In this document: one piece after another, positions 1,295 through 2,203 of the stretch
Layout: every line of letters starts with the position of its first letter
Position numbering within the stretch: the stretch's first letter is position 1
Source: Nanobdellota archaeon
GTDB taxonomy: Archaea > Nanobdellota > Nanobdellia > Woesearchaeales > CAZJJJ01
NCBI GenBank assembly: GCA_048624455.1
Contig: JBMCSP010000001.1
Coordinates: 1 to 31,611 of the forward strand
Reading direction: 5' to 3'
DNA: 31,611 nt
Translations under genes and position numbers: made by a program
Notes under the pieces: model-generated
What the model was told of the DNA's origin: nothing
Seen by the model: only the letters and a program-made list of their open reading frames with translations
Databases searched by the model: none

Positions 1295-2203
1295 TTGTCA
1301 TTCAAGAAACTGAGCATGATCTTCTTCATCATCGGCGCGCTGATCTCTGTTTTCAGCGGAGCTTTTGAGGTCATGGGAGGTCTTGAGAATGTCAAGCTTG
1401 CATTTCTTCTCTTGCTCGGTCTGCTTGTCGGACTGGTCAACATTTCTGACAAAGAGCAGATCAACTTCCTCGTCGCATCTGTGGCGTTTCTTTTCTCTTC
1501 ATACATCCTCATGGAGTTCGCTCCGCATCGCATCTATCTGCTCAACGGCCTCTTCGTGATGCTGGAGAACTTTATGATCTTCATCGCTCCGGCTGCGATC
1601 GTCATCGCGCTTAAACTGATCTTCGAATACGGTTCGGAATCGAACAAGGAATTCATGCTGGAACTTCCATCACCTCATGAGAGACATTTCCTTGCGAATC
1701 TCTGGGACATGATCCTTTTTGTCGCAGTAGCATTTGTCTTCGTCATCCTCATTCTGGAGAATTTCTTCGATCTCAGTGTCTATCCTACATTGCGTTCACT
1801 CCTCATGACGCTTGATTATGTTATCCTTGGCGTATTCGTCATCGACCTCGTGGTCATCTACAGGTGCCAGAAGAATGTCCTGCTCTTCCTGCGACGGAAC
1901 TGGCTTGACATCATCGCTGTCCTACCGCTCGGCTCTATCTTTCGCCTGACCAAGCTTGTAAGGCTTGTCAGGATCATCCGCATATTCTCACGTGCGGAGA
2001 AGGCAGCAAAAGTCAACAGGGTATCCAAGTTCTTCTCCGGCGACTCCGGCTTCAATAGGTTGCTTGCTCCTTCAAAAAAGAAAGACAGTGCAAAAGGATC
2101 AAAGAGATCAGGATCATCAACTAAGAAGACCTCAGCGAAACAAGCATCCTCAACGAAGAGCAAGGCAAAAAAGTCTAAGAAATCGAAGTCGCATTCCAGA
2201 TGA
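1295..2203 (+). CDS. Membrane protein: N-terminal uncharacterised 4-TM domain, voltage-sensor-like S1-S4 domain without pore, and Lys/Ser-rich tail
   Basis: S2 DYVILGVFVIDLVVIY; S3 NWLDIIAVLP; S4 FRLTKLVRLVRIIRIFSR with a basic residue every third position. No S5-P-S6 or TVGYG. TTG start. Confidence 0.75.
   Translation: MSFKKLSMIFFIIGALISVFSGAFEVMGGLENVKLAFLLLLGLLVGLVNISDKEQINFLVASVAFLFSSYILMEFAPHRIYLLNGLFVMLENFMIFIAPAAIVIALKLIFEYGSESNKEFMLELPSPHERHFLANLWDMILFVAVAFVFVILILENFFDLSVYPTLRSLLMTLDYVILGVFVIDLVVIYRCQKNVLLFLRRNWLDIIAVLPLGSIFRLTKLVRLVRIIRIFSRAEKAAKVNRVSKFFSGDSGFNRLLAPSKKKDSAKGSKRSGSSTKKTSAKQASSTKSKAKKSKKSKSHSR

Follow-up and report, generated by a model that had tools for sequence, protein, structure and literature searches.

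A pore-less voltage-sensor domain joined to an orphan four-helix membrane module is conserved in small archaea

Can a voltage-sensor domain (VSD) exist in a prokaryote without a channel pore? Pore-less VSDs, such as those of Hv1, voltage-sensing phosphatases, SLC9C1, and TMEM266, have been treated as eukaryotic inventions. According to one review, all known prokaryotic VSDs come with a pore domain and no Hv channel is known from bacteria or archaea (PMC10377628), and a second review also reports no Hv channel in prokaryotes (PMC13095418). The question is raised by a stretch of 31,611 nucleotides (hereafter the window, meaning that whole stretch) from a Nanobdellota archaeon of the order Woesearchaeales (contig JBMCSP010000001.1 of assembly GCA_048624455.1). 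The gene under study occupies positions 1295..2203 of the forward strand, stop codon included, and its open frame and homologs define a protein of 302 amino acids (aa) that consists of a four-helix module, a pore-less VSD, and a basic tail. An initial annotation, made from the sequence alone, had proposed a VSD without a pore fused to an uncharacterised four-transmembrane (4-TM) domain. We found that this architecture is conserved among the homologs, and we propose, with about an even chance of being right, that the product is a two-module voltage-responsive membrane protein of small archaea in which S4 switches a four-helix effector module.

The protein contains a complete S1-S4 VSD at residues 132-247. 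When residues 120-260 were scanned alone, the Pfam family Ion_trans (PF00520) aligned residues 135-239 with positions 2-117 of its 241-position profile, that is, with S1-S4 only, at an E-value of 4.2e-5 and with 23.3 bits against a cut-off of 25 bits. Relatives carrying the same type of VSD (P0073, P0081, and L010) scored above the Ion_trans cut-off. A search of the PDB sequences with the single sequence gave only chance-level matches to rhodopsins (E 0.05), and therefore a family profile was needed for a match to solved structures. With the profile of 63 homologs, the VSD of KvAP ranked first (E 2e-5) of 177,635 solved-chain sequences, ahead of hERG, HCN1, Kv1.3, and NavRh. In the KvAP alignment, D174, F181, and D184 of S2 correspond to D62, L69, and D72 of KvAP, and D205 and P211 of S3 correspond to E93 and P99. 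The S4 residues R217, K220, R223, and R226 align with R117, R120, R123, and R126. The KvAP counterparts of R233 and K236 are R133 and K136, and the family has one charge beyond the KvAP register, at position 229. The S3-S4 loop is very short because the family is without the 12-13 residues of the KvAP S3b paddle.

A whole-protein AlphaFold2 (AF2) model built on 63 sequences, with a mean predicted local distance difference test score (pLDDT) of 80, placed the VSD helices at residues 132-157, 164-191, 195-209, and 217-247. Conservation was counted in 63 homologs, diverging down to ~25% identity, and W137, F181, D184, D205, and K220 are invariant in all of them. S1 (residues 132-157; 1688..1765, + strand, as are all features of the gene) carries the invariant W137 and is without a mid-helix acidic residue. 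S2 (residues 164-191; 1784..1867) contains the motif VFVID and the charge-transfer centre D174, F181, and D184. S3 (residues 195-209; 1877..1921) carries N202-W203-L-D205 and leads to P211, which is kept in 62 of the 63 homologs. S4 and its cytoplasmic extension (residues 217-247; 1943..2035) have basic residues at every third position (R217-LT-K220-LV-R223-LV-R226-II-R229), then at 233, 236, 239, 242, and 245; the S4 sequence, FRLTKLVRLVRIIRIF, contains no Trp. Arg or Lys is found at position 217 in 46/63 homologs (Gln in eight), at 220 and 223 in every homolog, at 226 in 61/63, and at 229 in 60/63. Position 220 is always Lys, and position 223 is Arg in 61 homologs and Lys in two. The complete S1-S4 bundle of the initial annotation, with its VFVID and NWLD motifs and its five-residue S4 register, is thus borne out by the Ion_trans match, the KvAP profile match, the AF2 helices, and conservation, and its concern that the S4 arginines might not be conserved is answered by these counts. 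Work by Tao et al. from 2010 reportedly found a Lys occupying the charge-transfer centre in the Kv1.2-2.1 chimera; we speculate that the second S4 charge, as an invariant Lys, could indicate which state the sensor prefers.

In exhaustive structural alignments with VIA-align, residues 130-242 superposed on the VSDs of Kv3.1 (Z 9.7), KvAP (Z 9.5), and SLC9C1 (Z 8.8), as well as on those of Nav1.5 and Cav channels, with root-mean-square deviations of 2.3-3.7 Å over ~100 residues. Unrelated four-helix bundles, for example FliS, likewise reach Z ~9 with this aligner, and therefore the fold backs the VSD identity without proving it. A Foldseek search of the two-domain model against the PDB returned nothing at E below 0.3. 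The decisive evidence for a VSD is the fold combined with sequence and conservation, and the conservation at the canonical positions is far beyond chance.

The same residues bear on an alternative in which S1-S4 is kept for a structural purpose or for binding lipids or ligands, similar to the S1-S4 domains of TRP channels or TMEM266-like proteins, with the function residing in the N-terminal domain, the polybasic tail, or both. Voltage sensitivity is weak or missing in many S1-S4 domains of the superfamily, the S3-S4 loop of this family is extremely short, and its long, variable polybasic tails hint at a scaffold or binding role. However, the charge-transfer centre and the five S4 charges are strictly kept down to ~25% identity, as for a working sensor, whereas such residues are usually lost in degenerate S1-S4 domains. 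We therefore regard a purely structural VSD as unlikely.

No pore follows this sensor. The AF2 model has no helix past residue 257 and the Ion_trans match stops at position 117 of 241, so that S5, P-loop, and S6 are all missing. The S4 helix continues to residue 247 and is followed by a short helix at residues 252-257 and a disordered Lys/Ser tail, in line with the amphipathic stretch and Lys/Ser tail of the initial annotation. A K-channel filter motif is absent from the window protein and was present in just 2/147 representatives examined. Additionally, neither Pfam nor AF2 revealed a PTEN-like phosphatase/C2 or other soluble enzyme domain in the 55 largely disordered residues after S4.

All 16 close homologs are 245-300 aa long and have the same two-module layout. 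When 1.84 billion representatives were searched exhaustively, 627 relatives emerged at E below 1e-3. Full-length two-module copies make up the 31 best of them (E below 1e-30) and about 55 clusters in total, mostly of 250-330 aa, with a few longer-tailed members of up to 579 aa. Because the pore-less layout is conserved across homologs, the protein is not a truncation, and a fusion accident, which the initial annotation had considered, does not agree with about 55 clusters sharing the layout. Matches at E below 1e-25 occurred in 28/401 sampled genomes of the phylum, nearly all of them as the full fusion; these genomes span roughly nine to ten families, and those listed all belong to the order of the window. 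Six related loci were found with alignment A1, and the homologs are labelled Nanoarchaeota, Woesearchaeota, or Nanobdellota. In a tree of the N-terminal domain, 25 fused copies were separated from 37 free-standing ones by a split with 97% support in the Shimodaira-Hasegawa approximate likelihood ratio test (SH-aLRT), with one short, probably fragmentary sequence grouping with the fused copies. The split is consistent with four-helix module and VSD having been fused once, long ago, and retained as a unit ever since.

A sensor without a pore might itself conduct, either as an Hv1-like proton channel or as a constitutive omega-type pore, with the N-terminal domain serving for assembly only. Hv1 is a precedent for a lone VSD that conducts, and a proton channel was one of the functions proposed in the initial annotation. 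The residues of the sensor argue against this proposal. Positions 141, 145, 148, and 152 of S1 are occupied by V/I, V, V/T/A, and L/F, respectively, and the 63 sequences have acidic residues in S1 solely at positions 138 and 155, where the helix begins and ends. Moreover, S4 has no Trp, its gating-pore-lining positions are all Arg or Lys, and the F181 plug is invariant, while omega-type leaks need a small residue at such an S4 position (PMC13095418). Together with the reported absence of Hv channels from prokaryotes (PMC10377628, PMC13095418), these features make conduction by the VSD very improbable, and the proton channel of the initial annotation is not upheld.

The sensor could also pair in trans with a separate pore protein, giving a split voltage-gated channel. 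The genome of the window (G000) has one K+ channel gene that could provide the pore, found on contig C51 (L061:1282-2283, - strand) and encoding 333 aa with a TIGYGD filter, and a 2026 preprint reports that a foreign VSD functionally co-assembles with the pore-only Kir2.1 (10.64898/2026.08.07.743441). However, the channel gene lies on another contig and its product already has several N-terminal membrane helices of its own, no linkage or co-occurrence was observed, and the fused N-terminal domain would be left unexplained. Such a split channel is, in our view, the least probable of the explanations weighed here and hardly to be expected. The C51 channel also has a charged coiled C-terminus.

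What, then, is the partner of the sensor? Residues 1-115 (1295..1639) form an orphan four-helix membrane domain, which is connected to S1 by a cytoplasmic linker of about 17 aa (residues 116-131; 1640..1687) with low model confidence (pLDDT 56-65). Folded alone on 63 sequences, the N-terminal domain (N-domain) gave a four-helix bundle with a pLDDT of 93.5 and a predicted template modelling score (pTM) of 0.86, with helices at about residues 3-23, 31-48, 52-75, and 81-115. Conserved elements are G42xxxG46 in helix 2, N49-I-(S/T)-(D/E)-(K/R)-E at the turn between TM2 and TM3, F58-L59, and, in helix 4, N92, F96, and the small-residue stretch APAA. Both ends of the domain are probably cytoplasmic because S1 of the VSD starts in the cytoplasm, the number of helices is even, and the charges follow a positive-inside distribution.

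The N-domain is a separate 4-TM domain, as the initial annotation had described it, and it matched no known family. Pfam held no family common to its members, a Foldseek search against the PDB gave nothing below E 1, the exhaustive aligner reached at best Z 7.4 with unrelated helical proteins, and the Swiss-Prot models contained no match. In the ESM Atlas, the only matches were clusters without names, which came from similar archaea. Membership in a known small-transporter family is accordingly not supported by any convincing match in Pfam, PDB, Swiss-Prot, or Atlas, and a degenerate second VSD was ruled out by an hhalign probability of 0.1%.

Both modules also occur independently of each other. 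Free-standing genes for the N-domain, encoding 105-135 aa, were found in 37/53 related genomes without the fusion, and adjacent pairs of such genes were identified at G040:C1:33855-34545, G044:C47:5741-6513, and G021:C7:5099-5914. Additionally, the metagenomic protein P0079 (250 aa) contains two N-domain copies in one chain; as each copy has four helices, this duplication implies a parallel pair. The existence of free-standing, tandem-pair, and internally duplicated forms indicates that the module probably acts as a parallel dimer or a larger assembly. We considered whether fused and free N-domains exclude each other, which held among close relatives and proved false elsewhere, as 5/10 fusion genomes carry a free copy. 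The neighbourhoods of 20 free-standing N-domain genes contained housekeeping genes only (NurA, Metallophos, CBS-HTH, topoisomerase), and stand-alone VSD and stand-alone N-domain genes were never adjacent in the genomes searched.

The VSD in turn occurs with other partners or alone. In the genome G000, a second pore-less VSD is continuous with AA_permease_2 of the APC superfamily (contig C121, L033:2-736, - strand; cut by the contig end), and complete relatives of ~780 aa (L059:1238-3595, - strand, and L060:2389-4728, + strand) consist of a VSD, an APC permease, and a C-terminal S-adenosylmethionine (SAM) methyltransferase; these VSD-permease proteins were recognized from a profile match and Pfam architecture. 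In Candidatus Kaiserbacteria (L011:4503-5417, + strand), TM_HPP (PF04982), a putative transporter domain with four helices, precedes a C-terminal pore-less VSD. This layout is represented by four clusters of 295-317 aa (L011 and P0168-P0170) and was found in 1/201 sampled genomes of the class. Stand-alone VSD genes of ~150 aa, matching Ion_trans positions 1-117 only and having unrelated flanks, are exemplified by L010:4962-5417 (+ strand) of Candidatus Altiarchaeales and by P0073 on L002, and they account for dozens of clusters among the relatives from the 1.84-billion-representative search. All these proteins have the same type of VSD (NWLDIIAxIPF ... FRxxKxxRxxR) and come from the same or similar lineages, whereas the partner module differs. 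In these ultra-small prokaryotes, the VSD thus acts like a portable unit that is attached to membrane transport proteins.

As the VSD is joined to membrane transport modules in similar organisms, the four-helix module would by analogy be the controlled effector, and gating of the N-terminal domain by the VSD, which the initial annotation had also suggested, is the most economical reading and a plausible one. [quoted passage not shown] The segment would then switch the four-helix module of its own subunit or of an adjacent one. This module would most likely serve as a small conductance or transport unit, or as a unit that regulates transport. The post-S4 motif (K245-F-F-S-x-x-S-G-F-N254; 2027..2056), a candidate output element, is among the best-conserved parts of the protein (K245 in 61/63 homologs, F247 in 57, S248 in 58, and S251 in 57). 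Since its position matches that of the S4-S5 linker of channels, it is a candidate reporter of S4 movement.

Several observations weigh against such a voltage-switched effector. The Pfam score of the window protein itself (23.3 bits) lies slightly under the gathering cut-off. The whole-protein AF2 model has a pTM of 0.53 and no confident packing between the domains, and the prediction of a homodimer (two copies of residues 1-262, alignment A2) scored 0.01, with the chain itself poorly folded (pLDDT ~50), so that it bears on pairing in neither direction. S4 has no direct covalent connection to the N-domain, as the linker runs from TM4 to S1, and any coupling must therefore use tertiary or quaternary contacts. 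A motif resembling the post-S4 motif also follows S4 in some stand-alone VSDs, and it may therefore address another partner. Finally, no relative of the N-domain with a function was found in Pfam, PDB, Swiss-Prot, or Atlas, and the contexts of stand-alone N-domain genes are uninformative. A bolder form of the proposal, in which the four-helix module oligomerises into a new VSD-gated ion or solute pathway, voltage-gated without a canonical P-loop pore and with the order of the modules reversed, is tentative, and we consider it possible but rather doubtful.

The neighbouring genes suggest a different role for the sensor. The stop codon of the VSD gene overlaps the start of the next gene as ATGA, and this gene (2200..3375, + strand) encodes an amino-acid permease (Trp_Tyr_perm/Aa_trans) whose partnership with the VSD protein is putative. 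The protein could accordingly be a voltage-sensing accessory subunit of the permease, a split version of the VSD-APC fusion of this genome, in which the motion of S4 would control the uptake of amino acids within a non-covalent complex. Consistent with this idea, the two genes overlap, homologs down to ~45% identity keep the gene order AlaX-like, VSD, Trp_Tyr_perm/Aa_trans permease, and Lit-like, single-chain proteins with VSD, AA_permease_2, and methyltransferase exist in the window genome and its relatives, and the window carries a gene for a SAM methyltransferase two genes downstream. However, the adjacency is confined to one family; in about nine others, the fusion gene sits among different genes. 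Related genomes have the permease in 26/61 cases, mostly without the fusion, while one fusion genome (G043) has no permease match. Furthermore, the permease belongs to an APC family other than the VSD-fused one, and the conserved N-domain would be left unexplained. The permease as an obligate partner is thus supported neither by the phyletic pattern nor by synteny outside one family; its adjacency is real in the lineage of the window and not general to the VSD family. For this reason, the accessory subunit is ranked as a rival to the voltage-switched effector, and we judge it improbable.

Additional features were noted in the neighbourhoods of these genes. In the window, the VSD gene, the permease gene, and the methyltransferase gene (4200-4967) are separate genes of one cluster. 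At another locus, a homocysteine S-methyltransferase gene (PF02574; L005:7930-8832, + strand) follows the permease and Lit genes in place of the class-I methyltransferase, an arrangement reminiscent of permease/methyltransferase pairs such as MmuP/MmuM. A small two-helix protein adjoins the four-helix-VSD gene at 13 loci of two other families, at a distance of at most ~80 nt in 12 of them and of 734 nt in L034. It is encoded upstream on the same strand in L037, L039, L042-L048, and L050, and downstream on the opposite strand in L034-L036. This protein resembles the VSD protein in its Lys/Ser-rich tail, contains a conserved segment of the form APL..(D/E)E.ELA..E, matches no Pfam family, and is absent from the window. 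A presenilin/SPP-type protease is encoded downstream in family f61.

The ends of the gene were also defined. Its 302-codon open reading frame starts with TTG, preceded at a distance of 5 nt by the Shine-Dalgarno-like sequence GAGGTG (1284..1289, + strand). This start is credible because close homologs have an ATG at this very position and the same first residues, MSF(K/R)KLS (MSFKKLS in the window protein). A TATA-like A/T box, TATTTAAATT (1252..1261, + strand), lies ~35-40 nt 5' of the start codon and may represent a putative promoter. At the other end, the disordered Lys/Ser-rich tail (2066..2200) varies in length among homologs. Tails grow to 100-320 residues of Lys/Ala/Pro-rich low complexity in P0056, P0057, and P0037 (~320 in P0057), and those of P0056 and P0037 contain AKK/KKxxKK repeats; these expanded tails resemble those of histone H1. 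The genome of the window comprises 870 kb in 143 contigs and is 86% complete. DNA of the window is also present in microbial-mat metagenomes from two studies, and the locus was absent from the RNA runs among the sequencing runs searched. At 16003-16152 (- strand), Rfam identified a tRNA with a span of 150 nt and a long intron, which was unreported by ARAGORN. With its intron, this tRNA adds to the homolog labels in assigning the genome to the DPANN-type archaea.

The claim of the initial annotation that this architecture is undescribed agrees with the searchable literature, in which, with most subscription journals outside its coverage, we found no account of a prokaryotic pore-less VSD or of such a fusion. 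A conserved, ancient family, widespread in one archaeal order and combining an intact sensor with a new membrane partner, contradicts the view that prokaryotic VSDs always come with a pore. It also offers a small single-gene system (~260-aa core) for the coupling of a VSD to a non-pore effector, and the independent origin and modular spread of the sensor become directly testable. These results suggest that membrane potential may regulate transport in DPANN and candidate phyla radiation (CPR) organisms, whose physiology is almost unknown. A VSD-gated four-helix pathway, if it does exist, would join the VSD-permease, TM_HPP-VSD, and stand-alone forms in showing that the sensor serves ultra-small archaea and bacteria as a freely portable control unit, and it would bear on whether the sensor existed apart from the pore in early evolution.

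Compared with known systems, the window protein resembles Hv1, which acts as a dimer, in having a VSD without a pore domain, but it lacks the mid-S1 Asp that is the proton selectivity filter of Hv1 and the Trp of the S4 signature RxWRxxR, has an additional 4-TM domain, and shows no identified coiled coil of the eukaryotic type. In voltage-sensing phosphatases and TMEM266, the VSD is likewise a free-standing control module for a non-pore target, and TMEM266 shares the long cytoplasmic tail and has no known effector. Unlike the phosphatases, the window protein has no phosphatase or other soluble enzyme domain, and its candidate effector is membrane-embedded and N-terminal. The S1-S4 region of KvAP (1ORS/1ORQ) is homologous and has the same countercharges, plug position, and S3 proline, as well as the same register of S4 charges, including the break before R133/K136. 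The window protein differs from KvAP in being without the S4-S5 linker, S5-P-S6, and the S3b paddle (12-13 residues shorter), in having an extra four-helix domain before S1, and in its invariant Lys as the second S4 charge. SLC9C1, the VSD-gated sperm Na+/H+ exchanger, likewise carries a pore-less VSD C-terminal to a non-channel membrane module in one chain. Although the window protein instead has an orphan 4-TM bundle matching no transporter family, is without a cyclic-nucleotide-binding domain, and comes from an archaeon rather than an animal, SLC9C1 provides the best functional analogy for a sensor that controls a transport unit.

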